The position numbers were made by a program, and so were the translations under genes. A model generated the notes under the pieces. It did no database searches. It saw only the letters and a list, made by a program, of their open reading frames with translations, and was not told the DNA's origin. This document shows, one piece after another, positions 19,357 through 44,704 of a DNA stretch of 64,000 nt (positions are counted from its first letter, which is position 1; each line of letters starts with the position of its first letter). Location: positions 1 to 64,000 of IMG/VR virus record IMGVR_UViG_3300031857_000082, one strand, 5' to 3'. This DNA comes from a virus.

Positions 19357-19773
19357 TTAAGACCTTACCCTATAAATTGTACCACTACTGTCTACTTCAA
19401 TTTCTAACGATTCGTTAGGCCCCATGTTACTTAAATTAATAACAATATTGCCATTTTCAATATAAGCATAGTCACTTCCATCGGTAGGGAGTCTGCTTAT
19501 CAAATCAATACCATAAACATCAAATAATGAGTTGTTTGATTTTGTTGCAGATAATAAACTTGTAGGATCAAATTCTCTATTTATAGAAGATAGATTTGAT
19601 ATAACATTGTAAAATGGATTAATTCCTTCTACAGTATCATGCTTAGTAAACTTAGTTAATTCTAGTGAAGATAGGTTTTCAAATAATAGACTTTGTATTT
19701 CTGCTACGTCTACCCCTGGATCATCTAGATTGACAACAACATCCCTAGTAGGAATTTTTACTGGATCTCCCAT
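19357..19773 (-). CDS. minor tail protein
   Basis: Position in the tail operon; coupled to the upstream gene. Confidence 0.55.
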   Translation of the reverse strand: MGDPVKIPTRDVVVNLDDPGVDVAEIQSLLFENLSSLELTKFTKHDTVEGINPFYNVISNLSSINREFDPTSLLSATKSNNSLFDVYGIDLISRLPTDGSDYAYIENGNIVINLSNMGPNESLEIEVDSSGTIYRVRS

Positions 19774-22700
19774 TAAATTTCCACCATCCTTATTTTAGTT
19801 TCTGGACCACCTAGTGCTGAAGAATAGTCCATTTCGTACACAACAAATTTTTTATTGGTATCTACAAAGTCATACCCACCTGGCATTACATAGTTTATAG
19901 ATACTACATCTCCTAATTGTATCGTAGATGCACCAAATACGGAGGCAGCAATATCTTTTCTTTGTCTTAAGGTCTTTTGAATAATCCAAGACATTAATGA
20001 TTCAGCCTCATCTTTATTTTGAATATATAAAGAATCTAAAGAAAATCCTTTTTTGCCATATTTAGATCTACTTAATCGTATGTCTTGGTATAGTTGTTCT
20101 GCACTTATTGGAGAAAACAATGTTCTATCTACATATTTATCATCGTATACCGTTGAGTTTTCTTTAATAAATTCATCAACAGACAATGTATGACTTGTGC
20201 TTTGGGTAAAAGTAATACCATGAATCTTAAGATAATTAGAAGAGTTTTCTCCAAGGACGATAGTTTTATCTGTTGAATTAAATATTAAGAACTCTGCACC
20301 ATATGATCCTGCTCTAAATCCAGATGTGGTAAAGGACCTTTCACTACTAAATGTTTTTGCAATTTGTGCAATGAATGCAGGGTATGCTTGGTCATATTTA
20401 ATATTAAAATATGCACACTCCCTCATAATAGTTCCAAATTCTTCAAAGTACATATCATATTTGCTTGGACTATCTATGCCTATATTAGATAAGTATGAGC
20501 CTTTTACTAATCCAGATACTGCATATCTTCTAAGAGCATCTGAAGATGTTATTTGATTATTAGAAAAGGTTTGATCAATTTCTTTAATTACAGCAGCATT
20601 TGTTTGTTGACTTTGTAAGTTTTTTAATGCATATATATTTTCAAACATACATTTTGAAGACCCTCTAACAAATAAGGCCATATTGTTATAAACTGGTAGA
20701 GGCTCTGGGTCGTCAACAATTGCAATCAACTTATTATTTATATATAGGTAAAATCTTCTTGTAGTACCAATGTTTTCATATTCTACCGCCAAATCGTACA
20801 CTGTTGGATTTTCTATATTCATCAACCTATCTTGACCAACAAAGCCACCATCATCTACTAGTATTTGAGATAATCCACCCCATATCTTTTTAGGGATTGC
20901 TTCTTGTGTACCTGAGTTAACTGTTCCAGGTACTATCTTATAAAACATAACGTTTTCTAAAACTGAGTCTTGACCATTTGTTGATGACACATTATAGTCT
21001 TGTAAATTACTTCCCGTTAATGCACATATTTCAAAATAATATCCATAGTTGGTATTTGGATTAATCATAACTCCTAGCCCACCAGATCCACCAGAAATAA
21101 TTGCATCTTCTACAATATAATATTCTGAAGCATTTGTTGCAGTTTGAAGTTCATTAGTAGACTCTGGCTTTCCAATTATTCTCATTCTTGTTCCAAAATG
21201 TTTAAAGTCAGAAGTCATTTCTTTATATATATATGTTACAAAATTTTTAGGAGTTACTCCCGTAGTCATTGGAGTTGGTCCAGTAAATACTAATGCTGAA
21301 GATTGGATAGTTGCCGTAGAGGTAGTTTTTTGATATCTAATTGTTTCATCAGACGGAACTGTTTGTCTTAAAAAGTTTGCAATTATGCCATTTCTACTTG
21401 ACCTTGTTGCAGTTGCGTTATCAACACCTACTGCTTGTCCTAGTGCTTGAAATGTTGGAACAGTTAATACTGTTTGGGCTGATCCAGCAACGTATTGAGG
21501 ATATGCTATGTCTACAAATCCGTATCTATTGTCAACTTCAATTGGAGCAAGTGTATTAAACAAATACTCTGATTTCATATTTACACCACGAAGGTAAGTA
21601 TTATCTGACCAATAATCTGGAAGCCCAGCACTGTGATCTGTAATCTTAGTGCCAAATTGTGCTCTACCATGTTCTTTGACTGGACCATTCTTATAAACTA
21701 CTCCACCCCCACCTAATTGGTAATAAGGCTTTGTGTAAATTCTTACATTTCCAGTTCTAAACATTTTTCCATTAAATGGTAATTGTCCAAAGTATTGTTC
21801 ATATTGTTTAGGACTTGTTATCCATACTTTATTAGAGTTTACTGGAGTAGTGCTTATTTGTGGATCTAATATTATATCTACCCCGCCGTATACCATGTAT
21901 TCGATTGCATCATATCTAATAATTTCTCCATTAGCATATAGATAACCGTTAAACTTTTGAAGCCACATAACGTTTTCACCTAAATCAACTACATTGTTTT
22001 TAATTGTATTTGATTCAACATATGGTGCCACATCTGTAATATTTGAATTTAATGGTGCTGCTGAAAGTGTGTAGTCTCCAGATGAAGCAGCCTCATTTTG
22101 AGATATTTGAAATTGTTGTTGAGCAATTTCCCAAAGAAGGACTGGTTTATAAACATAGGTTATATCTTCATCTGTGTATGATGCTTGACTTAAACTAGAA
22201 GGTGATTTTTGAATATATCTATTTGTATAGTTTATTTGCCCATCATTTATAATAGGTGTTTCTCCATCTGCTAAGTCAAAGATATTAGATAGTTTATAAT
22301 TGCTACCTGGAACCTCTGCTGATGGATTGTCTAAGTAAGTTTCTGGTGTAGTTTGTCCGTATAGAACTAAATCAACAGATCTTTTATCTTGATCTGGAAG
22401 CAAGTATTCTTTTGGCATAACTACAAAATTATTATATTCATCAAAGAACATTGCTGATTGAGTAGACACGGCAAGTCTTTCAAGAACTTGAGCAACGCTT
22501 ACGTCTGGCTCAATAAAGAAATATGGAATAACTGGATCAAAGATATAATTATTTTCAAAAGTTTTAAAAACATAGTTACTAAATCCAATGTTGTCTAAAA
22601 GTATTGCCACTGCTGCAGTCAATGTTACATTCTTTAAAAATATTGTAGGGGCTACCGAGGTTTCTAATCTAAAATATGCATCTCTTAATTGTATAGTTAG

Positions 22701-24245
22701 GTCGTTAAGCCCTCCTACGGCTTTAGGAAATACTTCAGCATACAAACTTTTTAATGGTACAAACTTGTCATATTTAAGACCATCTGTATCTACTACCTTT
22801 AACACTCTTTCGTAAAAATCAAATTTAATATTGTTCTTTAATTTATTTGAAACAACGCTATTGGCATTTTGCTCACTAAATGCTGAATCAAAATTCATAA
22901 GTGTTATAGATCCATTAGAGGCAACTAGCCCACCTACTGGAATGCCAGAGTCGCTTTTGGCTATGGCCTTGTTAAAGGAAAAGCCGACAGTATATTCTGA
23001 CATGTCTGCCTTGATCCTAGGAGATAGTTCTATAAGGTCAAATGGGGTGTCTGGGGCTGTCATTGTCTTAATGGCTACCCTTAGACCCTTCAACTTAACA
23101 AACTCTCTATATATCCTTGTATTGTTTGTATTTACATATCTAGGGCTTGTTAATGATCTTGCCAACCCTGTTTGCTTAGTATCTTCAAAATTAGTATTGT
23201 TATCTTGTAATAGTGAGAATCCATAGTTAGGAGTATATTGTTCCCATATCTTTTTATTGTTATTATCATTCCAGATATAAAGAGTTCCTATGTTTGATTG
23301 GCTACCCCCAACTAAATAGGCGTCTCCATGGTTATTGTTAAAGTCTTTGCCAGGCAATTGGCTTTCTAAATCAAGATAGTCTACAAAGTTAAAGTATTGT
23401 TTATAGTCATTTGGTGCAATTAGCCCATAGTAAAGTTCTACGTATCCATCCCATGGAACTATTTCTGTTCCGTCTCTACGAGTAGAGGTTTCATCAAATG
23501 CTACAGCATCTACCCATGTATCTGTTTCATCTAAATATTGTATAGACCATACTTTAGGTATGCTAGATCTTGTTCTATCATTAAGAGGATTTTTAATAAC
23601 TTCATCTGTATATACTCTTACTGTCTCTGAAGAGTTTTCATCATCTGACAAATTTGTTTGCATCTTAACAACAATTCTGTTGGCAAACATAGATTCTTTA
23701 TACACTACAAATGGGCAAGCATCTTCAATATAATATCCTAGTGCCGTTTCTGTTTGAGAAGATATTCCTCTTTCAACATTCTCTTCTTTTCTATATGATG
23801 TCCAATATTTAAATTTATCATATTTAGAAGCAAGATAGTATCTAGGTCTTGTTCCAGATCTTATGTTATCTATATACTTTTTATTTCTAAAGACTACCTT
23901 GTTAATTCCAGACCTTGGTCTAAATGGAAGAAAGCAATCTTCTAAACTATAATATAACTTTCTAGATAATTCAGGGGTAACAAAAGGAATAGGAGTCTGT
24001 CCATCATTTTCTACTACGTATTCTGATTTAATAGAAGAGTCTAAAGCATTAATGAAGGTAGGATCTTCATTACTAAAATTGATGGGTAGAATATTAAATT
24101 CATTTCCTAATGGCCTATATCTATAATTACCAGATGCTGATATATCCTCTAGATCATTTAAATTCCATTCTGCTACTACAAATGATTTAATTTGTAAGGT
24201 AGTATTTTGCTCAATATGAGACTTTAAAACTGTATCTTGAAACAT
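19773..24245 (-). CDS. large tail-tip/hub (central-fibre-like) protein, 1490 aa
   Basis: Second gene after the tape measure; LERLAVSTQSAMFFDEYNN and IQLGDVVSI motifs typical of Tal/hub proteins. Confidence 0.7.
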   Translation of the reverse strand: MFQDTVLKSHIEQNTTLQIKSFVVAEWNLNDLEDISASGNYRYRPLGNEFNILPINFSNEDPTFINALDSSIKSEYVVENDGQTPIPFVTPELSRKLYYSLEDCFLPFRPRSGINKVVFRNKKYIDNIRSGTRPRYYLASKYDKFKYWTSYRKEENVERGISSQTETALGYYIEDACPFVVYKESMFANRIVVKMQTNLSDDENSSETVRVYTDEVIKNPLNDRTRSSIPKVWSIQYLDETDTWVDAVAFDETSTRRDGTEIVPWDGYVELYYGLIAPNDYKQYFNFVDYLDLESQLPGKDFNNNHGDAYLVGGSQSNIGTLYIWNDNNNKKIWEQYTPNYGFSLLQDNNTNFEDTKQTGLARSLTSPRYVNTNNTRIYREFVKLKGLRVAIKTMTAPDTPFDLIELSPRIKADMSEYTVGFSFNKAIAKSDSGIPVGGLVASNGSITLMNFDSAFSEQNANSVVSNKLKNNIKFDFYERVLKVVDTDGLKYDKFVPLKSLYAEVFPKAVGGLNDLTIQLRDAYFRLETSVAPTIFLKNVTLTAAVAILLDNIGFSNYVFKTFENNYIFDPVIPYFFIEPDVSVAQVLERLAVSTQSAMFFDEYNNFVVMPKEYLLPDQDKRSVDLVLYGQTTPETYLDNPSAEVPGSNYKLSNIFDLADGETPIINDGQINYTNRYIQKSPSSLSQASYTDEDITYVYKPVLLWEIAQQQFQISQNEAASSGDYTLSAAPLNSNITDVAPYVESNTIKNNVVDLGENVMWLQKFNGYLYANGEIIRYDAIEYMVYGGVDIILDPQISTTPVNSNKVWITSPKQYEQYFGQLPFNGKMFRTGNVRIYTKPYYQLGGGGVVYKNGPVKEHGRAQFGTKITDHSAGLPDYWSDNTYLRGVNMKSEYLFNTLAPIEVDNRYGFVDIAYPQYVAGSAQTVLTVPTFQALGQAVGVDNATATRSSRNGIIANFLRQTVPSDETIRYQKTTSTATIQSSALVFTGPTPMTTGVTPKNFVTYIYKEMTSDFKHFGTRMRIIGKPESTNELQTATNASEYYIVEDAIISGGSGGLGVMINPNTNYGYYFEICALTGSNLQDYNVSSTNGQDSVLENVMFYKIVPGTVNSGTQEAIPKKIWGGLSQILVDDGGFVGQDRLMNIENPTVYDLAVEYENIGTTRRFYLYINNKLIAIVDDPEPLPVYNNMALFVRGSSKCMFENIYALKNLQSQQTNAAVIKEIDQTFSNNQITSSDALRRYAVSGLVKGSYLSNIGIDSPSKYDMYFEEFGTIMRECAYFNIKYDQAYPAFIAQIAKTFSSERSFTTSGFRAGSYGAEFLIFNSTDKTIVLGENSSNYLKIHGITFTQSTSHTLSVDEFIKENSTVYDDKYVDRTLFSPISAEQLYQDIRLSRSKYGKKGFSLDSLYIQNKDEAESLMSWIIQKTLRQRKDIAASVFGASTIQLGDVVSINYVMPGGYDFVDTNKKFVVYEMDYSSALGGPETKIRMVEI

Positions 24246-24880
24246 TAGACTTCCTCTAGAGTTACAGACACATTACAAAAATCGTAAGTATTTCTACCTC
24301 TTTTAACAACTGACAAATCAAATGAGGCAAAGTATACTTCTACTAATTCGTTATACTCGCCAAGTCTATTAAATTGTGGATCGTCATTTTCATCCAGCAT
24401 ATTACTATATCTATCTGCAGCAATCATAACCCAAAATGAACCTGGATTATTGTTATACCAGTTTCTCATTTCTTCTGCTCCAGCACCACCGTCTGAGGTA
24501 TATTGAATAAGGTTTGAGGCTGTAGGTTTTCCAGTGCTAGCACTAAACTCTGGATTTTTATTAAAGGCTCTTGAGGGTAGCATTTCCCAATTTAAAGATA
24601 TTCTAAGTTTATCTGCTACATGGTATGAACGCATTTTAGCATTAATAGTTCTTTTTCTATTTTCAATTCTTTCACATGAGTATTCTATTGGTTGTCTATT
24701 ATCATCAGATAGAATTATAAAATCTTCATATTCTACCCCCGTTGGAACTAGAGTAGTTGCTCCAGCAATAGATATATGAGTATCTTTTGTCCCATAGGTT
24801 TTAGACCAAGCAATTGCTTGTGGTCTTTTTGGAAGGCTGTTTAGATTCCAACGACCATTTAGATATGAACTACTAGCCAA
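24245..24880 (-). CDS. distal-tail-like minor tail protein
   Basis: Immediately after the tape measure; RTINAKMRSYHVADK..ISLNWEMLP and terminal VSVTLEEV. Confidence 0.7.
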   Translation of the reverse strand: MASSSYLNGRWNLNSLPKRPQAIAWSKTYGTKDTHISIAGATTLVPTGVEYEDFIILSDDNRQPIEYSCERIENRKRTINAKMRSYHVADKLRISLNWEMLPSRAFNKNPEFSASTGKPTASNLIQYTSDGGAGAEEMRNWYNNNPGSFWVMIAADRYSNMLDENDDPQFNRLGEYNELVEVYFASFDLSVVKRGRNTYDFCNVSVTLEEV

Positions 24881-27800
24881 CTTTTACACCTCTTAGACTT
24901 CTTGACTCTACTTGTTTAATCTTTGACATTACGGCATTTGCTATTTCATCAGGAGATGCGTCTGTTCCTGCAACATTAACATTAATGCTATAACTATTAT
25001 TATACAGGCTAGGATTAGTTTTTGCACTACCCTTTGGCATTGCTCCGCCAGGATATATATTTCCGTTTAATTGTTCAAGCAATGGCATATAAGCACTAGC
25101 AACTGATTTTCTAATTACAAATTCTCCAGGAGTTAGTAATGCTGGAACACGATCTGTATTTCCCATTCCTGGAACCATACTTCCATATGCCATTTTTATT
25201 GCTGGAGGTGGCTCATTTGATCCCTTGTAGTTAACCCTTCCACCCATTGCATATAGCGGTGGATTTATTTTTAATTTGTATCTACTGATTAATAAATCTC
25301 TTTCTCCTTCACTTAAAACTTTATTAGCACTATTATTAATAAATCTATTAAAATCTGAAAGTGCTGCACTTTTTGCAGATCCCCTTAATTGACCATTAAT
25401 TGCTTTAGTTATTTGCTCTGCCCTCTTAACATATTTATCTTGTTGTGCCATTGGCGTTCCTGATCCTGTGTTGCTTGCTCCTCCAGAACCACCTCCGCTA
25501 AATGAGACCCCGCTTGCCTGACCTATTTTTTGTAACTCTGCAAAAATTTGTCTATAAACTTCAAGATTTGCAGTATTGTTTGCAAGACTTTTTAACTCTA
25601 ACGCATATCTTTCATCTGCTAATTTTTGTTGTAACTGTAATATAGGAATTTTTTCTTCTTCTATTTTTTTAATATCTAAACCTATTTGGTATATTCTTTC
25701 ATTTGATGCTTTAATGGCATCTTCAATTTCTTTTCTTGTCATCAATACGCCATTGACGCTTATCTTTATTGCCTTTATAGCATTTTCTCTTTGAACTTCT
25801 AGGGCTTTTCTAGCATCTTCTATTTTATATAATGCTTCTTGAGATGTTATTTCTGCAGCCGCTTGTGCTGCAGCCCCAATATCTCCGCTAGTAAGGGCTG
25901 TTGCTAAATTAATTCTTGATTTTTGTCTATTTGCATTTCTTTGATTTGCATTATCAACCTTGTCTAATGCCTCAACTCTCTTATTATATTCTTCATTAAT
26001 TTTTTCTTCTTGTTCTGATATTTTATCTAAAGCATGCTGTCTTACTTCATTTAAATCTTGTTCTTTTTCAATCTCATCTTGCTTTGCATTTATTCTTCTA
26101 TCAATCAATGTTATTTGTCTATTATAAATTTTATCTTGAATGTCAAGAACTTGCATTCTTTTATCTTCAGCACTTGTCAATCTATTTGTAATATCTACAG
26201 TATTTTTTAAATAGTCTTGATATGCTTTTTCTAAACTTATTCTTTGTTTTTGTGCCTTATTAGCAATTTCAATAGCAAGTGCTGGATCCATTTGTGCTAT
26301 CTGTGCATCTGTCAGCATTGATTGTTTCTTATCAGAATTTAATACCTTTAACGCTGCTATGTATTGTTTTGTTTGTTTAATTCTTTCTTGCATCATTTGA
26401 ATTTCAGTTTTATCTCCAGTGCCTGTTGTAGAGGCTGGGGTGGTTTGTTGATTCATTGCTAATAATGTTTTGTTCATTTCATCCATTTGTCCATAGGCAG
26501 CCACTGCACCAGATAATGATATATTTTTTCCAGCCTGTGTTATTCTACCTTGTATGTCTGCTATTTGTACTGCATATGTTATAGAAGCAAACTTGTTTTC
26601 TAATGTTAAGTTATTAAAGTCTTTTATTTTATTTAAAACATAATCAAACGATGATTCGCTACCACCAATTTTAATTGCAAAATCTATAGCGGCTTTCTTC
26701 ATTTGACCTGGTTTGCCACTACCCATATTTTTATAAATATCGCTAAATTCTTTTATTGCATCTTTATTTCCTGTTTCAATCTCTAATAATAACTTGCTTC
26801 CACCCAATGCTAGATTTCCATTTTTATCAAATCCAAATGAGTATAGTAATTCTTGTAATTGTCCTGCTTTATCTAATCCAACAATGTCTACCGCTGCTTT
26901 AAATGATGCTGCATTAGATGAAGAAAGATTATTTTGTGCCCACATTGCAAATTTTGATGCTTCAATTTCATTTCCAACAAACTTATTGGTCCACTCCACT
27001 GCTACAGAATTATCTTTGTTTTGTATAAAATCAACTAACATAACCAAATCTTCTGGCCTTATTTGACCAGATGATACCTGCAATAGTACCTGTGCTGACT
27101 TTCCTTCATCTAACTTGTTAGAAATTTCATTTATTTTCTTTACCTGTTCTTCTGTGTATCCACCAAGTATCAACTGATCCTTTAATGCTTGTGCAGTAGC
27201 ACCTTTATCAGAAGTTGCATTTAATGAAAATTGAATTTGTTTTTGTGCTTCTTGTTGTAATGAATTTGTTTTTTCAATTATTTCATTATATTTAGATTGA
27301 GTAATTGCACCCTTTTGTAATTCTATATTTGCAAGTGCTTGTGTTTCTTCAGCAGATTTAAATGTTTGTATTGCAGATGAGATATTAAAAGAAGAGTCTT
27401 TAAAGTCTTGATTTCCTATTGTGTAAGTTCCTCCCCTACCCGCTGATATAGCAGTTCTTGCTGGCCCCTCCATAGAACCTTTATATTGACCTCTTTGTTG
27501 TGTCAACCTTAATAAGGCTTCAGAACCTGATCCTTGTGAAGATATTTGTCTTATAACTTGATTTGACAAAAGAGAGTCTTTAAGTTCTACGCCCACTACT
27601 CTTGCAAACTCTCCACCAGAAGTTGCGTCCATCATTCCACTTGCTATTGCGTTTTGAATATAAGAAGACAGTTCAGAACTTCTTTCTGTTGAAGACATCC
27701 CTCTTAGACTTTGTAAAAATGCTTGACCTTGCTCTGTTTGTAATGCTGCAAAAGATTCTTCTTGTGCTTGAAGTTGTTTATCTGTAAATTTAACGCTATT

Positions 27801-30800
27801 AGATAAAGAAATTTGTAATGGAGTTTGTTTTCCTAAAATTTTTGCCATTACATCTAGTGCATTTGCTGCTCCACCTGCAGATGCACCTTGTTTAGCAGAC
27901 TCTCTTGCTGCCTTATCTATGCTTTCTCTATATTTCTTTAATCCTATGGCTGTTGCAGTAACTGCTGCAATTAAAATTCCCCATGGTCCAAAAAGTTTCG
28001 GTATTAAACTAGGAAATATAGACATTGCTAAAATAGCAGGAGTAAGTGTATTTATAAAATTTCCTACTCCATTTACGTATTTATTTGTGGCTTGTTGCAT
28101 TTGCTGACCTATCATTGGAAGAACAAATCCAGCACTCATAAGGCCCATTCCCATTGCTGGGTTTTTTGCCATATATTGAGCAACTCTTGATTGCATATTT
28201 GGTCTTAAACTAGAAGTTGGTCCTGCAACCCCTCTATTATTTGTTGCTAGATCCATAACTAATCTATTTTGTTCATCTGTTGCAAAATATTGAACGCCTG
28301 GAATTTTTCCACCCTTGTTATATCCAGCCATACTGCCGTTATTAATTGCTTTTAATAATGCCATATTGTTTCTAGTTGCTTCTTTGTTTACTACAAATTC
28401 CCCTGGAGTTAGCATTGCTGGAACGGTATCTGTGTTTCCAGATCCAGGAACTATATTTCCTCTATTAAATTTAGCAATACCACCTTTATTAAGGCCTAGT
28501 GTTCTTTTAAGATTTTCATTATAGTCATCTACTAAAGATGGTCTACCTCTAGAGATTCTTGAAAATTCATCATCAGTAACTTGTTTTCTAATTTTACTTA
28601 ATGCTCTATCTCTTACATCTTGGTACCCAGGACTATATACTGCCCATTGATTTTGGCTTTTCCATTCACTATATCTGCTTTGAACAATGTCTTCTAAGCC
28701 TTTTGCTTTTCTAAAAAATTGTCCTATATCTAATTTGATAGAACCTTTTTGTAAAATTTTTGCATAATCTACTGCAGCATCTGCACCAACAAAAGGTGCT
28801 AATTCATCAATCATATTCATAGATTTTGGATCTAATCCAGAAAGATTCATAATTGCAGGTTTGCCAACTCTTCCTCTTTCAAATATTGCTTTTCCTCTTA
28901 ATCCACCTAATGCGTATCTAGGAATCATGCCACCTTTATTTCTAAAAATTGGTTCATCTGGAGATAGTAAAATTTGTGATTCAAAATCATAAAAATCTTT
29001 TAATAACCTAGAAGTTTTTTGTTTTTTTCTTGGAGAATATGGAATACCTAATAATTCAGACACAATCATTTTTTGTTTTTCAAATTCTTTAATATTTATT
29101 GGAGCACCTATTCCTAAACTACTATATAGTTTACTTTGATTAAATTCTTTTGGTTCTACAACTGCTTGACCTAAATATCCTTTTAAACTATAGCCCCTAC
29201 CAGACTGTCTTTGTTTTTCTATTCTGGTTTGGGTATGGTGTGATCTATCTCCAAGTTTTCTTCCATCTCCTCCTATAAATGCTAACTCAGCAATATCATC
29301 TCCTACGTATCCTTTATTTTTCAAAAAACTTGTTAAGTCAAGAATCTCATTACTTTCATTTGAAATTGTATTCCATCTTAAATCTTTAGGATCTGTTTTA
29401 ATTTCTATTTGTCTTATCTTGTTTGCTTCAGAATATAATTTTTTTCTAATAGGAGCAAGATCTTCTATTCCGCTATTATTAAATCCAGATTTTTTAAATA
29501 ACATGTCTATTTCATCATTACTAAATCCACTTTGTCTTAATGCCATAGCATCATTAAGTCTTGCACCTTCTACAACATCTGTCCAACTTCTTGATCTTAA
29601 TCTTTGTAATACATTTTTATCAAATGCACCTAATTGTGGCCTTAGTTGTTTAATTTGCTTTCTCATTCTTGCACCTATAAGCATTCCTATATTTGCATAT
29701 TGAACACCTGGAATTTTTCCACCCATACCATATTTAGGTATCTTTCCACCCATACCATACATATGAGCACCTTCAAAGCCAGCAGGTCTCTTAGTACCTC
29801 TCCAACTTTGTTGCATTCTTGTATATGACTGTCTATTTAAATCTTCATAAGTAGATCTATTAGCCATTTGACCAGTGCTACTTCTCATTCTTTGTTTCAT
29901 TACATTTGCAGTATCTTCTGATAATAATCTTTGTAAATGATCTGGAGATAGTCTATTTAATAGTGCTTCATTTTGTAATTCTTTTACAGAAACAAATTTA
30001 ACATTAGCATATTCAGGTTTATCTATTACATCTTGAATTCTTTCAAGTCCTTTACTATCTAAGAATCTTACTTCTTTACCCGCATTTTTTGCTGCTATAG
30101 AATCAAAATTATTTTGTAGTGTTGTCTTATAAGCAGTCTTTGCCCATTTTTGACCAGCGTATGCATCTATCATCCACATACCAATGTCGCTTGTCATTTC
30201 TCTTCTAAGTTGATCTAGTGGTACGCCTCTCTTATCAAACCCACCCATTACTCTATTTCCAACTAATTGTTTATTTGTAGTTGGATTAACAAGATATACA
30301 AGATTATTTAGTTTACCTAATACTTCTCCAGTTGCTCTTGAAGATACTGATGCAGTTCCTAAAGGCATTCTTCTTCTATTTGGTGCAAATACTGAAAGTT
30401 CTGATGCTGCTTTTTCTGCTGCTTGCCTTGGTCCTAAGTAAGCACCAGGGTTTGCATATGTAGTGCCACCCTTATTGTATCCAGCACCTCCACCATTAAT
30501 TGCGTATAGTAATCCTAAATTCTTTTCAGTTGCCTGTTTATTAACAATAAATTCTCCAGGTGTAAGCATTGCTGGAACGGTATCAGAATTGCCAGTTCCT
30601 GGAACAGTAGATCCGTCACTCATAAATATTCTTCCACCAGAATTTCTCATTTGTGGTGGTCTGATTATTCTTCCACTTGCTGCTCTTCCTGTTTGAGCAA
30701 GTCCTGCTGCAGTTTGTCCAATACCCATTGTATAAGGTGCAAGTCTTGCTGCTTCCATCATTTTTGCTATAAGAATAGTATATGAATCGCCTAAGTATTT

Positions 30801-32702
30801 AACTGCACCTGCTGCACCCATTGCTTCTGAAACTTGTTTTCTAAGTGCACTATTGGTAAATTCTGTTGCAGTTCCTAATTGTTGTGCAGCAAGGGCTGCT
30901 TCAATTTCTGCTGTTGAAAAATACTTAGTTGACTGGGTTGCATTTTTAAATGCTCCAACAATACCACCTTGTAAAAATCCTTTACTAAAAGCACCCATGA
31001 ACTGAAATAGTTTTGCAAGAGTACCAGTTAAGTTCATCAACAAACCAAAGAACATCGTTCCAGCGGGTATAACAAGACCAGTAATAATAGTTGCAAATGC
31101 TATAAACCTCTTTGAAAAATCTGGTAGGCTATTAAATGCATCTGCGATGCTAGTAGCAAAATTAACTAATGGAATTGCTAACTTAACAAATATTTCACCT
31201 ATAGGGGCTATTGCTAATTTAAACTTTTCTACTGCCGCTTTTAATTGAACACTAAATGCTTCTTCAATAGTTTTTAATTCTCGATCAGCAGTCATGGCTA
31301 ATTCTTCAACACTGTACCCCATAGTAGCCATAACCTGTTGAGCCTGAGATCCATCTCTAATAACGTTTTCAAATAAAGCACCTAATCTTGCATATTGGTA
31401 CTTACCAAATACTTCTTCTAATGCCTGTTGTTGTTCAAATTCTCCTAGTGTTGATAAGGCCTTAGCAAATGCAGTAACTGTCTTCATTAAGTCACCTTGA
31501 TTAGTTTGAATAATTGCATCTAAATTGACGCCAAACTTACCTAGTGTTTCCGTTGCTGATTTGCTTGGATTAATTAAAGATGCAAGACCAGACTTTAAAG
31601 CGTTTGCACCCTGTTCTGCACTCACACCACCTTCTTGCATTGCTGCTAGAAATACGGTTAAATCTTTTACGTCTCCACCCAAACCTTGAATTACTGGTGC
31701 TACACGTGGTATTGCTGCTGCAATATCTTGTAGGCTTACTACAGTTTGGTTTTCTACCATATTTAGATAGTTAATAGTATCTGCTAATTCATTTCCTGAA
31801 AGTTTAAAAGCACTTTGAAGTGCAATGGTTGTTTCTAATGCTGCATTTTGATCCATCTGGCCAAGGGTTGCTAGTCTTGTAGCCTGACTTACTGCATCTG
31901 TTAAATCTGAATTTCTTCTACCTGCTGCTGCAGCCTGGGCTGCTAGACTCATTGTGTCTTTAACTGCTATACCATATTTAGTATATTCTCTACCAAGATC
32001 TTGTACTGCTTTTAAGTTATCTTGCATTTCTCTTGGAGTTGTAAATAAGTCTCCATATACTTTCTTAAATGCTACCGTTTGTTTTTCTAAATCAGCAAAT
32101 ACCTTGCCTGCTGTTGTTCCAAATATAGTTAATGGAACTGTAAAACCAACCATAAGTTGACGTCCAGCCCATTGTACGTTTTTACCAAAATTTACAAGTT
32201 GAGTTGTTCCCTGTCTAAACATTGATGAAAGAATCTGAGTTCTTTGAGAAGCAATAGTAGCCTGATCGGCAAATGCTTGTAGTGGTCTAATTGCAAGAGC
32301 GTCTTGCATTCCTTTTGATGATTTGGCTGTTGCGATAAATTGAGTTTGAAGTACGCTAGCCTTTTGTCTTGCTAAGTCTAATGTTTCTGCAAATAGTGCA
32401 CCATTTTTTACATATCTTGCACTAAAATACTGTCCAAGTGTTGCTTGTCCTTTTTTAAGAGTATCATCTAAGGCTCCAGCAGCAGTACGCATTCTTACTG
32501 ATTCAGCAGTAAATACCTTGCTGGAGTTAACCATATCTGCAAGGCTAGAGGCGTATTTTTGAGAGGCTGCTAATGAAGCAGCGTTATTTTTATTTAATGA
32601 TAGGAAAACAGAATTAATCTGTTGTTGTAAAATCTTTAGTTCTGCAGCAGATTTGCCAGTATTGATTTCAATGTCAACAATACCTTTTACTACTTCAGCC
32701 AC
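24873..32702 (-). CDS. tape measure protein (2609 aa) with internal cargo domains
   Basis: TP901-like TMP core (LAAMQEGGVSAEQGANALKS, EEVFGK), hydrophobic segments, coiled coils, three DxVPAxLTPGEFV motifs, C-terminal NYSINVNV. Confidence 0.93.
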   Translation of the reverse strand: MAEVVKGIVDIEINTGKSAAELKILQQQINSVFLSLNKNNAASLAASQKYASSLADMVNSSKVFTAESVRMRTAAGALDDTLKKGQATLGQYFSARYVKNGALFAETLDLARQKASVLQTQFIATAKSSKGMQDALAIRPLQAFADQATIASQRTQILSSMFRQGTTQLVNFGKNVQWAGRQLMVGFTVPLTIFGTTAGKVFADLEKQTVAFKKVYGDLFTTPREMQDNLKAVQDLGREYTKYGIAVKDTMSLAAQAAAAGRRNSDLTDAVSQATRLATLGQMDQNAALETTIALQSAFKLSGNELADTINYLNMVENQTVVSLQDIAAAIPRVAPVIQGLGGDVKDLTVFLAAMQEGGVSAEQGANALKSGLASLINPSKSATETLGKFGVNLDAIIQTNQGDLMKTVTAFAKALSTLGEFEQQQALEEVFGKYQYARLGALFENVIRDGSQAQQVMATMGYSVEELAMTADRELKTIEEAFSVQLKAAVEKFKLAIAPIGEIFVKLAIPLVNFATSIADAFNSLPDFSKRFIAFATIITGLVIPAGTMFFGLLMNLTGTLAKLFQFMGAFSKGFLQGGIVGAFKNATQSTKYFSTAEIEAALAAQQLGTATEFTNSALRKQVSEAMGAAGAVKYLGDSYTILIAKMMEAARLAPYTMGIGQTAAGLAQTGRAASGRIIRPPQMRNSGGRIFMSDGSTVPGTGNSDTVPAMLTPGEFIVNKQATEKNLGLLYAINGGGAGYNKGGTTYANPGAYLGPRQAAEKAASELSVFAPNRRRMPLGTASVSSRATGEVLGKLNNLVYLVNPTTNKQLVGNRVMGGFDKRGVPLDQLRREMTSDIGMWMIDAYAGQKWAKTAYKTTLQNNFDSIAAKNAGKEVRFLDSKGLERIQDVIDKPEYANVKFVSVKELQNEALLNRLSPDHLQRLLSEDTANVMKQRMRSSTGQMANRSTYEDLNRQSYTRMQQSWRGTKRPAGFEGAHMYGMGGKIPKYGMGGKIPGVQYANIGMLIGARMRKQIKQLRPQLGAFDKNVLQRLRSRSWTDVVEGARLNDAMALRQSGFSNDEIDMLFKKSGFNNSGIEDLAPIRKKLYSEANKIRQIEIKTDPKDLRWNTISNESNEILDLTSFLKNKGYVGDDIAELAFIGGDGRKLGDRSHHTQTRIEKQRQSGRGYSLKGYLGQAVVEPKEFNQSKLYSSLGIGAPINIKEFEKQKMIVSELLGIPYSPRKKQKTSRLLKDFYDFESQILLSPDEPIFRNKGGMIPRYALGGLRGKAIFERGRVGKPAIMNLSGLDPKSMNMIDELAPFVGADAAVDYAKILQKGSIKLDIGQFFRKAKGLEDIVQSRYSEWKSQNQWAVYSPGYQDVRDRALSKIRKQVTDDEFSRISRGRPSLVDDYNENLKRTLGLNKGGIAKFNRGNIVPGSGNTDTVPAMLTPGEFVVNKEATRNNMALLKAINNGSMAGYNKGGKIPGVQYFATDEQNRLVMDLATNNRGVAGPTSSLRPNMQSRVAQYMAKNPAMGMGLMSAGFVLPMIGQQMQQATNKYVNGVGNFINTLTPAILAMSIFPSLIPKLFGPWGILIAAVTATAIGLKKYRESIDKAARESAKQGASAGGAANALDVMAKILGKQTPLQISLSNSVKFTDKQLQAQEESFAALQTEQGQAFLQSLRGMSSTERSSELSSYIQNAIASGMMDATSGGEFARVVGVELKDSLLSNQVIRQISSQGSGSEALLRLTQQRGQYKGSMEGPARTAISAGRGGTYTIGNQDFKDSSFNISSAIQTFKSAEETQALANIELQKGAITQSKYNEIIEKTNSLQQEAQKQIQFSLNATSDKGATAQALKDQLILGGYTEEQVKKINEISNKLDEGKSAQVLLQVSSGQIRPEDLVMLVDFIQNKDNSVAVEWTNKFVGNEIEASKFAMWAQNNLSSSNAASFKAAVDIVGLDKAGQLQELLYSFGFDKNGNLALGGSKLLLEIETGNKDAIKEFSDIYKNMGSGKPGQMKKAAIDFAIKIGGSESSFDYVLNKIKDFNNLTLENKFASITYAVQIADIQGRITQAGKNISLSGAVAAYGQMDEMNKTLLAMNQQTTPASTTGTGDKTEIQMMQERIKQTKQYIAALKVLNSDKKQSMLTDAQIAQMDPALAIEIANKAQKQRISLEKAYQDYLKNTVDITNRLTSAEDKRMQVLDIQDKIYNRQITLIDRRINAKQDEIEKEQDLNEVRQHALDKISEQEEKINEEYNKRVEALDKVDNANQRNANRQKSRINLATALTSGDIGAAAQAAAEITSQEALYKIEDARKALEVQRENAIKAIKISVNGVLMTRKEIEDAIKASNERIYQIGLDIKKIEEEKIPILQLQQKLADERYALELKSLANNTANLEVYRQIFAELQKIGQASGVSFSGGGSGGASNTGSGTPMAQQDKYVKRAEQITKAINGQLRGSAKSAALSDFNRFINNSANKVLSEGERDLLISRYKLKINPPLYAMGGRVNYKGSNEPPPAIKMAYGSMVPGMGNTDRVPALLTPGEFVIRKSVASAYMPLLEQLNGNIYPGGAMPKGSAKTNPSLYNNSYSINVNVAGTDASPDEIANAVMSKIKQVESRSLRGVKVG

Positions 32703-33466: not shown

Positions 33467-34150
33467 TTACATTTGTGCTGGGGCTTGTCCAACTGTTCTG
33501 TCGACAATTTTGCCGTATGAACCGTTAGATGCTGACAACAGACGGAATGTAACTTCGAACATAGAAGGTGTATCACGCTTTGCAGAAACTGATACATTCT
33601 CGATTGAGAGTGCACGGTTTGCTACGTAAATACGTTCTACTGCGTTGTTTCCTGTTTTTGTTGGATCTCCAGATCCTGGACCAACAGCAACAAGAGCACG
33701 CTCTACTGGAACATCGCCAATATCTCCTGAAGAGAGATTTAAGCGAGCACCGCCGAATCCTTTGTCTGCTTCTTTTGCTGCAATTGCAGTAACCAAGTTA
33801 TCAAGTGTTGCTTCTGCAAAACCTGTAACCATAGAAACTTGCATACCTTGTTTGTAAAGTTTTGCAACGTCTAGCAATTGATCAACTTGAACTTCACCAA
33901 AGTCTGGTTGGAATTGTAATTCCAAACCATTCATTGTGTAGCCAACACTTGACCAATCTGCTGAATCAGCAAGGGTGTCTTTGTAGGATGAGTTAGCCTG
34001 AAATGCTGGAAGATCAGAAGTTCCTGTTCCAGTAAATGAGTAAATTGCTGATGCACCTGTTCCTGAAACGTATTCCAGTGGGCTATCTGCAATAAACAAT
34101 GCTGCTGCACCTACGATGATTTGTTTTGAATCACCACGTGTATATGCCAT
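33467..34150 (-). CDS. major tail (tube) protein
   Basis: IIVGAAALF, GYTMNGLE, VDQLLD, FAEATLDNL, FEVTFRLL; strong RBS; terminator downstream. Confidence 0.88.
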   Translation of the reverse strand: MAYTRGDSKQIIVGAAALFIADSPLEYVSGTGASAIYSFTGTGTSDLPAFQANSSYKDTLADSADWSSVGYTMNGLELQFQPDFGEVQVDQLLDVAKLYKQGMQVSMVTGFAEATLDNLVTAIAAKEADKGFGGARLNLSSGDIGDVPVERALVAVGPGSGDPTKTGNNAVERIYVANRALSIENVSVSAKRDTPSMFEVTFRLLSASNGSYGKIVDRTVGQAPAQM

Positions 34151-36839: not shown

Positions 36840-37820
36840 TTATGCTGTACGTGCGATTGCATCAGTTTCTTCGATTTGAACACCGAAACGTAAGAATACA
36901 GTATATTCTACTGTGTCTTTCTTAGGTTGGAATTCACGATGAACTGTGATATCTCTTTGGAAACCCCAAATTCTATTTTCAGGGAATGTCAAAGTGATAC
37001 GGTTTGCAGGCATCAAAGGAACTTCCAATAAAGGAAGACCTAATACACGGTACTGGATTGGAGCACCTAGTATTTGTGGTTCTTGGCCAGCAACAACTCT
37101 TTCAACGATTCTTTCGCTGTTCAAGTTGCCTGAAGATCCAAGGCCATTGATGATGTTTGATACTGTTTCTGTATCTGCATAGAACTTCATTGCTGCACGT
37201 GAGGCACGGTATTTACGAGGCATTGCAAGCACAAGTGCTTGTAAGTCTTCGATATTTGTACCAAATGTTGCAGTGTTTGTTGAAGTATTTTCTTTTGTGA
37301 CAAATCCTTCAAGGATGTTTAGGAACGCATTTGATCCTGTTCCAGTTCCGTTGATTGCAAGATCTTCAAGATCGTTTGCAAACGCACGGGTCATGGTACG
37401 GACTAAGTGGTCTTCTAAACCTGCTCCTTCTAGGTTGTCTTCTAGTGCTTCTGTTGATACTTCCCAATCAAGACGAATCTTCTTTGTTGAAAGTTCAACC
37501 TTTGTGAAAGTTACGCCAGCGTTTGTGTAAGTTGCATCTGCTTGTGCAGCGGCACGGATTACACGTTCGCCTACGTTTAACTTTTCAAGTTCTGAAGCGT
37601 TTGTACGCATTGTTACTCTGCGTCCATCTCTTGCAAGAACTTGTTGTTCGAAAATGTATTCGATAAATTGGCGTGATTGCTCAGGAGCAAGAATACCGCC
37701 GTCATTAGCGGCACTTCCTGCGACACCAAGGTCTCCTGCGGCTGGGGTTGTTACACCACCAATACCACCAGAAACGATAGATCCTGTAGCAGCAGCCTTT
37801 TCTAAAATTTCATCTGCCAT
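36840..37820 (-). CDS. major capsid protein (HK97 fold)
   Basis: GGILAPEQSRQF, LSTKKIRLDWEVSTEALEDN, FANDLEDLAINGT, LGLPLLEVP; follows the protease-scaffold gene. Confidence 0.92.
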   Translation of the reverse strand: MADEILEKAAATGSIVSGGIGGVTTPAAGDLGVAGSAANDGGILAPEQSRQFIEYIFEQQVLARDGRRVTMRTNASELEKLNVGERVIRAAAQADATYTNAGVTFTKVELSTKKIRLDWEVSTEALEDNLEGAGLEDHLVRTMTRAFANDLEDLAINGTGTGSNAFLNILEGFVTKENTSTNTATFGTNIEDLQALVLAMPRKYRASRAAMKFYADTETVSNIINGLGSSGNLNSERIVERVVAGQEPQILGAPIQYRVLGLPLLEVPLMPANRITLTFPENRIWGFQRDITVHREFQPKKDTVEYTVFLRFGVQIEETDAIARTA

Positions 37821-39288: not shown

Positions 39289-40845
39289 TTATTCTTGAGA
39301 TCTACCTTCACCCTGGGCATTTCGTCCAGTAGTGGTGGATGCAGAATCGGAAGCATTATCTGTTCTCTGTTGGTCTCTACTTCTATTTCCAGTTGATTGA
39401 GCGACTTGTTCTGCTCTGGCTTGTGCACCTAGAACAATGGGGTCTGAGCCGCCAGGTCTAACTGGATACCCTAATCTTTCACGAACTTCATTTGGAACAA
39501 CTACCTGCATACGTAGGTATCTCTCGTCAATTTGACTTTGAGTTTGTTCGTCTGTCAATGTTAGTTCATTGAATTTAAGGGCAAGCATATCTGTTTTTTC
39601 CTTAACAATCTTGTTAATGGTTTTTTCTAGATTTCTTTGTGCTGGTCTTGCTACTTGTTCCTTAAATGTTCTATCTGCCACCAATGCTGATGCGATAGAA
39701 ACTCCCGCTCCACCACCAACTTTTGAATAAGGCACTTGGTGTGCCATTAAGATATCGTCACGATTTGACTTACGGTATTTTTCAAACGATCCGTCTTGAA
39801 TACCATTCTCAATTGGTTTTAGATCAAAATCTACTTTATTATCTGGTCCATCTCCAGGAAGAGGGATGTAGAGTGTTCTGTGGTTTTGTCCACGAAGTCC
39901 AGCCTGCATGAATCTAAAGAACTTATCTTCTGCTTCTGGGCTAAGTTTTGCACCCTTTACCAAGGCAATGTATCTAGGAACTGCTTTGTTTTCAAAGTAA
40001 TCAACATTGTATTTTGCTGCTAGTTCATTACCAACCATAGAAGTTGCTGCTGACACTGTATCTGGAACTCCATAGTATGAGTTCTTTGGAGAATACTTTT
40101 TAATATGAATTAGTTCATTTGGCCTATTGTCGCTTGTTACAGGGTTGATATTTCTTTGTTCTTGGAAGTTTCTAAAGTATACTACCTTTTGATTTACTAT
40201 TTGAATATACCCGTCACGCATACGGCGTACACGAATTGTGGTTGCTGGGATATGACCAATGTAACCAATATCTCCATTTACTTTTCTACCAATTTCAATG
40301 TATCCATTACCTACTGTTTCAACATCTGTATATACTTTTTCTAAAACATGTGTAAATGTATCTTCATCATTTAGGCTTTCTAGCCATTCGGTCATTTGAG
40401 CCTTAGTTCTTTGAATCTTTCTTTGTGCCCTCATTAATTGATCTTCTGATTCTGACTCTTCTAATTTTGCAACTGTTGAATCAGTCATTTCAAAACTATA
40501 TCCTAGCCCAACTGTATTGGCAACCTTTGCATTAATAGCGGCATGATTAGCATATGAATTTTCATAAAAGTATGCCAACTCATCTAGGTTATATGGTGGA
40601 AGGACTACGTCAAAAAGACCATAGGCTGTAACCATATCCATTTCTGGAAATAGTTGTTTTGATTTAGTATCGTCTATTCCTTGAAATGCTTTATTAACTG
40701 TTCTTGAAATTTTGCGTTTAAAATTTTGATGTAGCCCATCATAGGACTTTACAAGTTCTCCATCTGTTGTAAATGGATCGACCTTAGTTTTCTTTTCAAC
40801 CTTGTCTAAATTATCTATCCTTGCTATTGCTTCGTTATCTTCCAT
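39289..40845 (-). CDS. portal protein
   Basis: GNGYIEI, HIPATTIR, ELIHIK, YYGVP, YFENKAVP, NEVRERLGYP; start placed at ATG 40845. Confidence 0.92.
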   Translation of the reverse strand: MEDNEAIARIDNLDKVEKKTKVDPFTTDGELVKSYDGLHQNFKRKISRTVNKAFQGIDDTKSKQLFPEMDMVTAYGLFDVVLPPYNLDELAYFYENSYANHAAINAKVANTVGLGYSFEMTDSTVAKLEESESEDQLMRAQRKIQRTKAQMTEWLESLNDEDTFTHVLEKVYTDVETVGNGYIEIGRKVNGDIGYIGHIPATTIRVRRMRDGYIQIVNQKVVYFRNFQEQRNINPVTSDNRPNELIHIKKYSPKNSYYGVPDTVSAATSMVGNELAAKYNVDYFENKAVPRYIALVKGAKLSPEAEDKFFRFMQAGLRGQNHRTLYIPLPGDGPDNKVDFDLKPIENGIQDGSFEKYRKSNRDDILMAHQVPYSKVGGGAGVSIASALVADRTFKEQVARPAQRNLEKTINKIVKEKTDMLALKFNELTLTDEQTQSQIDERYLRMQVVVPNEVRERLGYPVRPGGSDPIVLGAQARAEQVAQSTGNRSRDQQRTDNASDSASTTTGRNAQGEGRSQE

Positions 40846-41200
40846 GTTTTCTAAAACCTTCTTCTGCTGCCATCCAGGCACCGATATCTGTTTGACTTGG
40901 GATTAAGCCATCTTTCATTCTTTGTGTTTGTTCTGCATATTCTTCATCTGTAACTCTAGTCACACCAGCCATGAATTCTACTTTGCCTTCTGGAGCACCA
41001 TAGTACTCTGCTGCTTTTCTTATCTTTGACATTTTTTCAATATCATAAGGTCTTCCAGGGATATTCATTATATTTCCCTTGCCATCTCCAAAGGGCTTGC
41101 CATCAAAGTCACATTTCCAGACATATATGCCCCAGTCAGACTTTTTTTCTACTACACTTACTCTAGGCTTACCATTATTTTTTAATTTCTTTGGATTCAT
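40835..41200 (-). CDS. hypothetical protein upstream of the portal (probably leaderless)
   Basis: TGGTATACT 7 nt before the ATG; overlaps the portal start. Confidence 0.8.
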   Translation of the reverse strand: MNPKKLKNNGKPRVSVVEKKSDWGIYVWKCDFDGKPFGDGKGNIMNIPGRPYDIEKMSKIRKAAEYYGAPEGKVEFMAGVTRVTDEEYAEQTQRMKDGLIPSQTDIGAWMAAEEGFRKHGR

Positions 41201-44200: not shown

Positions 44201-44704
44201 AGTAGATTCAAAATTTAAATAACCAACTCTTACTATTGGTTTGAATGTTGATGATGTTGGAATATCTACTGAGTAAGAAGCGTGTGTCCATGTTGAGGGA
44301 CTTTCGTTTTCAAATCTTTTATAAGTAACGCTTCCAGATACATCTATCCCTAAATCTATATAGTCTACTGTTGTTCCAGAAAAAAACCAGGTACTTAAAG
44401 ATATTGATCTTTTATCTGTATCTATATTTGATTCAGTAAAATAGGTTGGAAAAGTTGAGGTTGTAACTGATACGCTTGCAGACTTTGTAATATAAGATAA
44501 GCCGTCTTCTAATATTGGTCTATTTGGGTATGTAGAAGATGCTACCGAAGCAGATGTCCCACCCGAAGTATTCCAGGTAGATAGGCTCTGAGTGGAGGCA
44601 CTAAGTAGATTTGTAAAAGCAAAATCTTCATCTAGTGTCCATAAGGCTATTGGATGTTCTGCAAATATTTTTGAAGCATATAGATTAGAAACGGTATATG
44701 ACAT
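41219..44704 (-). CDS. large virion protein with LamG/concanavalin-like beta domains (1161 aa)
   Basis: EHPIALWTLDE N-terminus, LTAEFWIR and ELDAVAIY LamG-like motifs; Ser/Thr-rich. Confidence 0.6.
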   Translation of the reverse strand: MSYTVSNLYASKIFAEHPIALWTLDEDFAFTNLLSASTQSLSTWNTSGGTSASVASSTYPNRPILEDGLSYITKSASVSVTTSTFPTYFTESNIDTDKRSISLSTWFFSGTTVDYIDLGIDVSGSVTYKRFENESPSTWTHASYSVDIPTSSTFKPIVRVGYLNFESTGSNFNVYFNGVSFAQWSEVYNRDTSGTKPIVLSDNSLSSAISVNASAYKVSQIQPYGFNDEDTGYYFINRNKMLANNTSLPMVFGSGNITRVNSPIDSGVPSIAIPGKTFLNDNGKYKNLTAEFWIRVYTDSQEPIRVFGPVSNSDGLYVEQEFLTLKVGSYTKSYFVGKWYRPMLLDIRYTSSNVSVLLNGDLVIDMDIDVNNVNFASSSHDWLGFYSHNTVYPFELDAVAIYPYIVPEQIARRRFVYAQAVDNPEEIVSDFKGESFFVDFPFAKYTSSMTYPDMNRWSSGFFSNLNGNSRSLSFVDYELPEIKFSYTSASVTIDDDISNNFLIDNYNIQNGEPTFIKMRPNASYDNVLGSIYFNSINTINSPVASIFGVFEAPQSLPTYSNREPIMTFTNSFTSDKFKICLSQSGLSYEFQTSASTYQIANYSASASQDLFVGIELEELIKSNFAIIGNFFNNPQNVSLNLGGYEDKVFTGKIRSLTFNNKMFTIKDTSELINTNGTMFFTEAEANNEGLYPFTYVGSYTFLPISSYGEIFFDIGSAGYWEDSLPLSYFGTYVQDTNSSPYYDLDLIQFNIDVPGPITMTNSASVADAFSMKSYITLQDFKLVGKKTYSSYTNTQNIGASRVLDLVPEFSTLTKKFEVVDGTIIYPPKELIDFENYYITIHLEMRVRGIKSKPVNIKRMSLTSLAFDETSEYKIGTRSGHSIIPFTRSGLNYDYKEKNPFTIYRDSTPYLYLTGDSGIAVLPYQSTKLRGLSFPINDHEASSYKLTGLQFWMFYNKDKTISSTQKMGTIIATEANAGINDYYDIYLVPELNGKRGSLKVYKNNVLYTGAKFFVNGRIIDEMKVVPLEWTSILISFTDSTDITLNSKKGKFEIYEGFLANNIAFFQQEFVNFFSKLTTGLQWTNIDDQNWDYPTQLATPLTWQQWGEIAITDIVSQTGDSTFKTYLGLSEQVFDDSATAVTNSDGFDALTNVTWVKKDVTAV

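Follow-up and report, generated by a model that had tools for sequence, protein, structure and literature searches.

We analysed a window of viral DNA of 64,000 nucleotides (nt), positions 1 to 64,000 of the 87,214-bp IMG/VR virus record IMGVR_UViG_3300031857_000082, whose completeness is estimated at 76%. The source is an uncultured siphovirus with a guanine-plus-cytosine (G+C) content of about 34%. Most open reading frames (ORFs) of at least 100 amino acids (aa) in the window lie on the minus strand, and our subject is a tape measure protein (TMP) whose gene lies at 24873..32702 on that strand. The whole finding falls inside this single ORF of 2,609 aa. The TMP assignment is supported by gene position and by family matches: the product scored 92.3 bits against PF10145 (curated cut-off 33.2) and 93.6 bits against TIGR01760 (cut-off 28.8), which places it in the TP901-type family, and PHROG TMP families matched it over aa 53-658 with a best expect value (E) of 5.8e-92.

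We found that this TMP consists of a fixed frame and two exchange slots; all of its features are read from the minus strand. The conserved N-terminal frame (aa 1-680) includes the TP901-type core found with PF10145 (aa 232-433; 31404..32009) and hydrophobic segment 1 (aa 494-558; 31029..31223). It is followed by a sequence element, M1 (aa 681-760; 30423..30662), domain A (aa 792-981; 29760..30329), joint 1 (aa 982-1003; 29694..29759), slot B (aa 1004-1250; 28953..29693), joint 2 (aa 1251-1292; 28827..28952), slot C (aa 1293-1402; 28497..28826) and a second copy of the element, M2 (aa 1403-1478; 28269..28496). Hydrophobic segment 2 (aa 1549-1588; 27939..28058) leads into an Ala/Gln-rich rod of about 800 aa (aa 1589-2399; 25506..27938), then a Gly-rich stretch, a third copy of the element, M3 (aa 2480-2557; 25032..25265), and a C-terminal tail of 52 aa (24876..25031).

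The two hydrophobic segments were located by Kyte-Doolittle analysis (windows above 1.5 for segment 1) and flank the stretch much as the initial annotation had described, at about 30960-31200 and 27940-28160. Segment 1 occupies the same place in most relatives that share the frame, and the position of segment 2 after the last internal element also recurs in relatives. The rod, presumed to be helical, stands out by its composition, its net charge of -3 and block-wise changes in identity. The C-terminal 52 aa are 88-94% identical across the 11 closest relatives and, by analogy with the resolved C-termini of the T5, JBD30 and Douge TMPs as given in the available portions of those reports, likely dock onto the tail hub (PMC10038345, PMC11445458, PMC13033339). 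The rod is itself a mosaic, in which the identity of blocks aa 1651-2100, 2101-2200 and 2351-2500 (25200-27750 of the window) changes with the relative compared, the levels being about 100%, 50-60% and under 30%.

An identity profile was drawn by aligning this TMP with its 11 closest relatives, which we designate by P numbers. Identity was 82-100% over aa 1-750 and 76-94% over aa 801-950 (domain A), only 0-34% over aa 1001-1250 (slot B) and 0-26% over aa 1301-1400 (slot C), and 76-88% over aa 1401-1450 (M2). In 9 of these relatives identity recovered to 62-68% between the variable slots, over aa 1251-1300 (joint 2); in P0012 and P0014 it was 26-32% there. The slots diverged even against P0004, which is 94-100% identical at aa 1-750. 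The alignment that the initial annotation had proposed as a check thus gave the anticipated picture, with conserved flanks and motifs enclosing different contents. A conserved carrier with exchangeable modules at conserved junctions is a feature shared with polymorphic toxin and effector systems. The linker after M1 (aa 751-800; 30303-30452) is a third fast-changing stretch, with 74% identity in P0004 and 32-42% in the other 10 close relatives.

The slot contents fall into distinct types, at least three for slot B and four for slot C. For slot B, type B1 comprises this phage, P0003 (39% identity) and P0005 (35%). Type B2 comprises P0004, P0006, P0007, P0008 and P0012 (69-97% mutual identity), with P0009 and P0010 at about 40-48%; type B3 comprises P0011 and P0014, which are 94% identical to each other and have no match above chance level to other B sequences. 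Within the B2 class, slot B is 69-76% identical between proteins whose frames are 94-98% identical. For slot C, this phage alone carries type C1 in the close set, nine proteins share type C2 (79-100% identity), P0012 carries C3 and P0014 carries C4. Profile-profile comparison by hhalign indicated that B1 and B2 are remote homologues (97.8%, E 1.2e-12), as are C1 and C2 (93.4%, E 2.5e-7), and that B3 is unrelated (1.3%). The slot types occur in different pairings, B2 with C3 in P0012, B3 with C2 in P0011 and B3 with C4 in P0014, indicating that B and C reassort independently. The C allele of this phage is also 82% identical in P0028, though the frame of P0028 is only 71% identical and this protein lacks A.

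Two viral and 14 metagenome loci were related, among which one contig (L010, the same as L004) is a close relative, and the comparison of close relatives at the DNA level is with this one contig. Against it, DNA identity was 83-92% in the frame and 59-68% in the linker after M1 (aa 751-810). It dropped from 83% to 43% across joint 1 (within aa 991-1020), stayed at 34-57% through B and C except for 68-72% at joint 2 (aa 1237-1296), and was again 88% from aa 1412. These steps place breakpoints in joint 1, in joint 2 and in the N-terminal flank of M2. Taken together, the comparisons show that B and C are replaced separately, by what the sequences indicate to be recombination between phages with breakpoints in the conserved joints. 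We therefore regard a modular, recombining architecture of the TMP as very probable. Ends of BLAST high-scoring segment pairs also lay within 15 aa of a GG motif in 38% of cases, against 19% for uniform positions, a difference of little weight given that most of these matches cover the element only.

The same data bear on an explanation that needs no function beyond that of a ruler, in which B and C would be weakly constrained, length-setting stretches that drift and recombine freely, only length and charge being important. Slot lengths are indeed narrow (B 217-280 aa, C 140-158 aa, whole proteins 2,545-2,648 aa), both slots are predicted to be helical at low confidence, and other blocks of the rod are mosaic too. 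In mycobacteriophage TM4, deletion of the embedded mt3 motif shortened the tails as predicted, according to the available text (PMC1796659). However, B1 and B2, like C1 and C2, have kept a detectable common profile, and the C2 alleles have stayed close to one another. The composition of the slots is sharply unlike that of the rod, being richer in aromatic residues, proline and basic residues. The sharp identity cliffs at conserved joints are also signs of replacement and not of drift. We consider it quite unlikely that B and C are filler of this kind.

Domain A behaves differently from B and C. The initial annotation had divided the interval into three unrelated cargos, and we did find A, B and C to be mutually unrelated (hhalign probability at most 1.0% for each pair). 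B and C also proved to be exchange slots, but the identity of A follows that of the frame. With a frame at least 90% identical, A was at about 80-91%; with one of about 71% it was at 51-60%, and with one of about 59% at 42%. A thus belongs to the frame as a fixed component, leaving B and C as the only cassettes.

An AlphaFold2 model of 320 aa (predicted template modelling score, pTM, 0.57; alignment of 26 rows) gave 10-residue block means of the predicted local distance difference test (pLDDT) of 67-98 over aa 791-980, with mixed strands and helices. A is confidently predicted by this model to be a real folded alpha/beta domain. M1, which occupies model residues 1-80, was poorly predicted (block means 34-56). 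The fold search that the initial annotation had suggested for its cargos returned no match for A in the PDB (best Foldseek E 0.87), among 48,161 chains searched with VIA-align (best Z 3.5, none at or above 5) or in BFVD (best E 0.073). This is weak evidence, not proof, that the predicted fold may be new.

The joints and elements share a vocabulary of GG motifs. Every GG motif listed in the initial annotation is present, at aa 686 (RNSGG), 742 (YNKGG), 982 and 991 (YGMGG), 1254 (RNKGG), 1263 (YALGG), 1404 (LNKGG) and 1461 (YNKGG). The pattern [YFR]xxGG occurs 8 times in aa 681-1480 against a shuffle mean of 1.2, and GG[KM]IP 4 times against 0.0, with 0 of 2,000 shuffles reaching either count. 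The three copies of a core reported earlier (VPGxGNxDTVPAMLTPGEF, here written more loosely as VPGxGNxDxVPAxLTPGEF) were also recovered, at aa 700-718, 1418-1436 and 2510-2528, that is, nt 30549-30605, 28395-28451 and 25119-25175. At the DNA level, they form a 120-nt repeat family with 68-76% identity.

Alignment of the three copies revealed one element of about 75 aa, which reads hydrophobic-x-x-GG, the core PGxGxxDxVPAxLTPGEFV, a short helix (ATxxNxxLLxAIN) and again hydrophobic-x-x-GG. M1 reads RNSGG, VPGTGNSDTVPAMLTPGEFIVNK, helix and YNKGG, and was recognised by its motif and by profile matches; M2 is 52% identical to it. GG motifs flank the core on both sides in M1 (686 and 742) and M2 (1404 and 1461); in M3, YAMGG stands at 2484 and the C-terminal side carries a degenerate YPGG at 2549. 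The GG motifs beside each GEFV core are therefore part of the element and not free linkers. The earlier description of all GG motifs as linkers does not hold for the two motifs that flank each core.

Each joint contains two GG motifs spaced 9 aa apart, and from their sequences the joints look like flanks of the element that lack the core. Joint 1 reads YGMGGKIP-K-YGMGGKIPGVQYANIG, and joint 2 reads RNKGGMIPRYALGGLRGKAIFERGRVGKPAIMNLSGL. YGMGGKIP in joint 1 is a tandem duplicate (direct repeat D5), a 27-nt repeat at 29710-29759 whose copies are 91% identical in DNA; at the corresponding place, each of the 11 closest relatives shows YGMGG once. We also considered a pairing of M1 with M2, which would loop out the cassette; the predicted complex of aa 681-765 with aa 1395-1475 scored 0.26, the mark being 0.32.

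A family search with aa 680-1480 returned 2,269 proteins at E of at most 0.001 among 8,000 scored candidates, and architectures were counted in 121 proteins, namely the query and the best 120 of the 2,269 (listed lengths 1,453-4,498 aa). The number of elements per protein was 3 in 56 proteins, 5 in 26, 4 in 19, 6 in 15, 2 in 4 and 7 in 1. A recurring order was found, namely hydrophobic segment, element, variable interval, element, hydrophobic segment, a rod of about 1,000 aa, element and 50-70 aa. The first element lies at aa 640-720 in 67 proteins, and the interval from first to last internal element spans 296-1,854 aa (median 654). Tile clustering of the inter-element intervals collapsed to one chained component. 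Among the 119 other family proteins, 75 have the frame, 39 have A, 5 have this B type and 3 have this C type. A Pfam scan of 13 of the 119 relatives gave PF10145 only in 12, and one also had an EF-hand. The logo of the element's flanks is [FYLR]-[AN]-x-G-G-x-[VI]-[YPF] (563 N-flank and 659 C-flank instances in 120 proteins). Cysteine is absent from this TMP and from 118 of 120 family members, with 2 cysteines in 377,048 residues.

The element is not confined to this family. A profile built from 12 sequences matched two TMPs among PDB sequences, mycobacteriophage Douge gp16 (two copies, 964-1027 and 1413-1462 of 1,699 aa, E 7.7e-15) and Pseudomonas phage JBD30 gp46 (one copy, 1016-1074 of 1,158 aa, E 3.2e-4), and did not list T5 pb2 at E of at most 10. 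A 459-instance profile aligned to aa 754-798 of lambda gpH, with E 2.8e-6 in a search of that one sequence, which reads FATGG ... GEFVFTKEATSRIGVGNLYRLMRGYATGG there. The TMP of mycobacteriophage SamScheppers also has the element, a Ralstonia phage has it twice, and in Synechococcus myophage S-SM2 it occurs in a protein adjoining the baseplate hub gene. Sixteen PHROG families matched it at E of at most 1, of which 10 are annotated as TMPs; for 10 of the 16, the aligned part begins after 80% of the profile length. The piece that touches phrog_971, annotated "endolysin", is the element and not the inserts. These matches, mostly late in the profile, indicate that ordinary TMPs usually carry the element once near the C terminus. 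M3 lies in this usual place, 52 aa from the end (50-150 aa is expected of a gpH-type element; 51-52 aa in the closest TMPs), and M1 and M2 are extra internal copies.

Comparison with lambda places the element beside a known cutting region. We located it in gpH at about aa 735-785 (FATGG ... GEFVFTKEAT ... YATGG), after a hydrophobic and Gly-rich stretch and before a hub-docking C terminus, as in this TMP (PMC12617516). The available part of the lambda report states that cutting of gpH in the Gly-rich region yields gpH*, of roughly residues 1-710, and gpHC, at a site and by a catalyst not yet known (PMC12617516). The element would thus belong to gpHC, just downstream of the cutting region. In contrast to the TMP studied here, with its three elements, folded domain and two exchange slots, gpH has 853 aa, one element, no inserts and one cut.

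T5 pb2 is also cut, after R1127, which frees a muralytic domain. As described in the accessible text, the final 43 residues of pb2*, which come just after a hydrophobic stretch, are anchored between subunits of the hub, pb2C carries the muralytic peptidase, and the protein is expelled and inserts in the envelope (PMC10038345). T5 pb2 resembles this TMP in having a hydrophobic stretch, a short anchor, a delivered functional domain and a C-terminal hub helix, but its cargo is a known metallopeptidase and its cut is single, whereas the inserts here belong to no known family.

JBD30 gp46 and Douge gp16 resemble this TMP in matching the element profile, and differ in that neither paper, in its available portions, reports exchange slots (PMC11445458, PMC13033339). 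For JBD30, a hook of two helices and a hairpin was predicted at residues 1022-1066, and its authors speculated, by analogy with T5, that the TMP is anchored in the baseplate after a cut at 1066, beside the element, as the available text has it (PMC11445458). The Douge text mentions neither cleavage nor mass spectrometry (PMC13033339). The JBD30 and Douge TMP structures include no more than the last 33 and 42 residues (PMC11445458, PMC13033339), so the element is resolved in neither.

These cuts bear on the proposal that the TMP is an injected polyprotein, in which the GG joints and elements would be cleavage sites and A, B and C would be freed as take-over, anti-defence or toxic effectors when the TMP is expelled. 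The modular polymorphism at conserved joints is in line with it, as are the T5 cut that frees a muralytic domain, the lambda cut just upstream of the same element and the speculated cut beside it in JBD30. TMP-related effectors of contractile injection systems (CIS) carry diverse C-terminal functional domains, one of them toxic, in the accessible part of their description (PMC13277306), and a basic charge would suit effectors directed at nucleic acids. However, cleavage at GG motifs is hypothetical in this family, and we found no positive evidence of it here. The TMP cuts on record are single ones, and the available text of the lambda report names those of T5 and lambda as the sole TMPs with demonstrated cutting (PMC12617516). 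The GG consensus resembles a strand-turn staple as much as a cleavage site, and A is linked to the frame.

Searches of A, B and C against Pfam and NCBIfam gave nothing above noise, PHROG gave nothing below E 0.01, ESM Atlas gave a usable match for neither A nor B, and a PDB sequence search with the whole-TMP profile returned coiled-coil noise only. A phmmer search of B+C against 1.84 billion representatives gave 9 matches, all giant TMP-like proteins or their fragments, and no stand-alone homologue of A (110-350 aa) was found. No Pfam, NCBIfam or PHROG lysis match pointed to a peptidoglycan hydrolase in A, B or C, as embedded-hydrolase TMPs have. Nor did these segments match toxin, enzyme or effector families or appear in other delivery contexts, unlike polymorphic toxin domains, which move between delivery systems. 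The effector identity put forward in the initial annotation thus found no support, and neither did its actinophage setting, since nothing ties the phage to Actinobacteria and G+C across the window is 0.32-0.41. Release of A, B and C as effectors is unlikely, if more probable than filler. Between these two we rank the wider proposal that this phage group injects its giant TMPs as polyproteins, with gpH-type elements and GG joints as processing or docking points and basic B and C, perhaps also A, freed ahead of the DNA as a changeable take-over or counter-defence set from undescribed families.

The model of B, C and M2 was all-helical with a mean pLDDT of 47 and a pTM of 0.24. Block means were 28-64 in B and 76-89 over aa ~1335-1394 in C, whose last ~70 aa are predicted to form three helices. 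A fold search with B+C gave a best E of 1.7, a value that carries no weight on so poor a model. Slot B contains DRSHH at ~29270-29290 (aa ~1145-1150), which is DRGHH in B2 alleles, and a conserved Asn-Gln follows about 27-30 aa later. A His-Me nuclease of the NucA/EndoG type, whose DRGH motif this recalls, was considered for slot B, but PF01223 had no match in the whole phage record at E of at most 10, and the control found the family in 4 of 14 named genomes. For the beta-beta-alpha-metal fold of such nucleases, the B model is all-helical at low confidence and the fold search gave nothing.

A property shared by all slot types is charge. The 990 aa between the hydrophobic segments (aa 559-1548) have a net charge of +49 and an isoelectric point of 9.9, which agrees with the charged stretch seen by the initial annotation, against 0 for the N-terminal frame and -3 for the rod. 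Every B variant carries +10 to +25 (+10 in this phage) and every C variant +7 to +11, unrelated B3 included. Of 67 same-frame proteins, 66 have an interval with net positive charge; the median is +4.8 per 100 aa, compared with 0.0 in the N-terminal frame and -1.7 in the rod.

A charge conserved across unrelated inserts would be expected if the basic interval served internal packing, binding the acidic lumen of the tail tube or the leading end of the DNA. The interval would then co-vary with the phage's own tube or DNA-end features and not with the host. Its location in the N-proximal half, nearer the DNA end as judged from the known C-terminus-at-tip orientation, is compatible with such a role. 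A charge requirement alone, however, leaves the distinct conserved allele families and the folded domain A unexplained, and we consider internal packing highly unlikely, the least probable of these explanations.

We favour a role for the basic A-B-C interval in contact with the host, in which the inserts need not be cut free, and rate it at somewhat less than an even chance. The whole TMP chain would lie in the tail tube until ejection and leave it before the DNA, C terminus first, and the two hydrophobic segments would enter the host envelope. The 990-aa basic stretch would thereby end up in one host compartment, where it may contact anionic or variable host components, envelope or cytoplasmic, and aid DNA entry. 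The joints would act as flexible, recombination-tolerant seams, and B and C would vary because their partners are host-specific or related to defence. TMP parts that act on the envelope after ejection have precedents in T5 pb2 and in TM4 mt3, as far as the accessible texts describe them (PMC10038345, PMC1796659).

Some points weigh against a host-contact role. The low pLDDT of the helices predicted for B suggests that B may be a ruler-like helix and not a separate domain, and fast divergence with conserved charge would also fit weakly constrained filler. The compartment reached could be the periplasm or the cytoplasm.

Two other systems offer partial parallels to this TMP. Motif 3 of TM4 gp17, and the Rpf-type motif 1 in Barnyard, are non-ruler domains inside a TMP that aid infection. 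These motifs are related to host cell-wall hydrolases, unlike A, B and C, and the available portion of the report does not describe a repeated joint grammar (PMC1796659). The Sle1-type TMP-related effectors of actinobacterial CIS combine a TMP-like helical platform with diverse exchangeable functional domains, but their variable domain is C-terminal and their carrier is a CIS and not a phage. The likeness is one of description, taken from the accessible text (PMC13277306).

TMPs are usually viewed as rulers and channel formers. Here, near-identical phages differ by exchange of two slots of the ruler at fixed seams, and this exchange, with the basic charge kept by unrelated inserts, points to a DNA-entry part whose tuning differs from phage to phage. 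Should host factors or defences be what the inserts meet, the inserts would add host specificity at a second level, following receptor binding, and be a source of new protein families. The seams suggest natural sites where foreign domains might be tolerated in a TMP, and the multiplied gpH-type element offers a handle for studying an element that lambda also carries. TMPs with embedded domains and mosaic TMP genes are already known. In the literature searched, we found no description of a multi-copy gpH-type element with GG seams fencing exchange slots. What this case adds is a fixed domain set apart from two independently reassorting slots, a charge rule and a folded domain with no detected fold relative.

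The setting of the gene is that of a siphovirus tail module. The region had zero matches among 50,697 phage records searched by megablast, a tRNA search for a clue to the host found none, and a scan of 26 ORFs brought up no match to a sheath family. The PHROG-based gene order is portal (39289-40881), prohead protease, major capsid protein (36840-37820), an adaptor-like gene, an immunoglobulin (Ig)-domain protein (33467-34150), two small ORFs labelled chaperones from position only, the TMP, a 211-aa ORF and a 1,490-aa minor tail protein. A 1,161-aa ORF (41219-44704, minus strand) with no PHROG match at E of at most 1e-5 lies between the portal and ribonucleotide reductase genes. The 211-aa ORF (24245-24880, minus strand) and the minor tail protein gene (19773-24245, minus strand), which have no Pfam match at E of at most 0.01, likely occupy the hub and distal tail positions.

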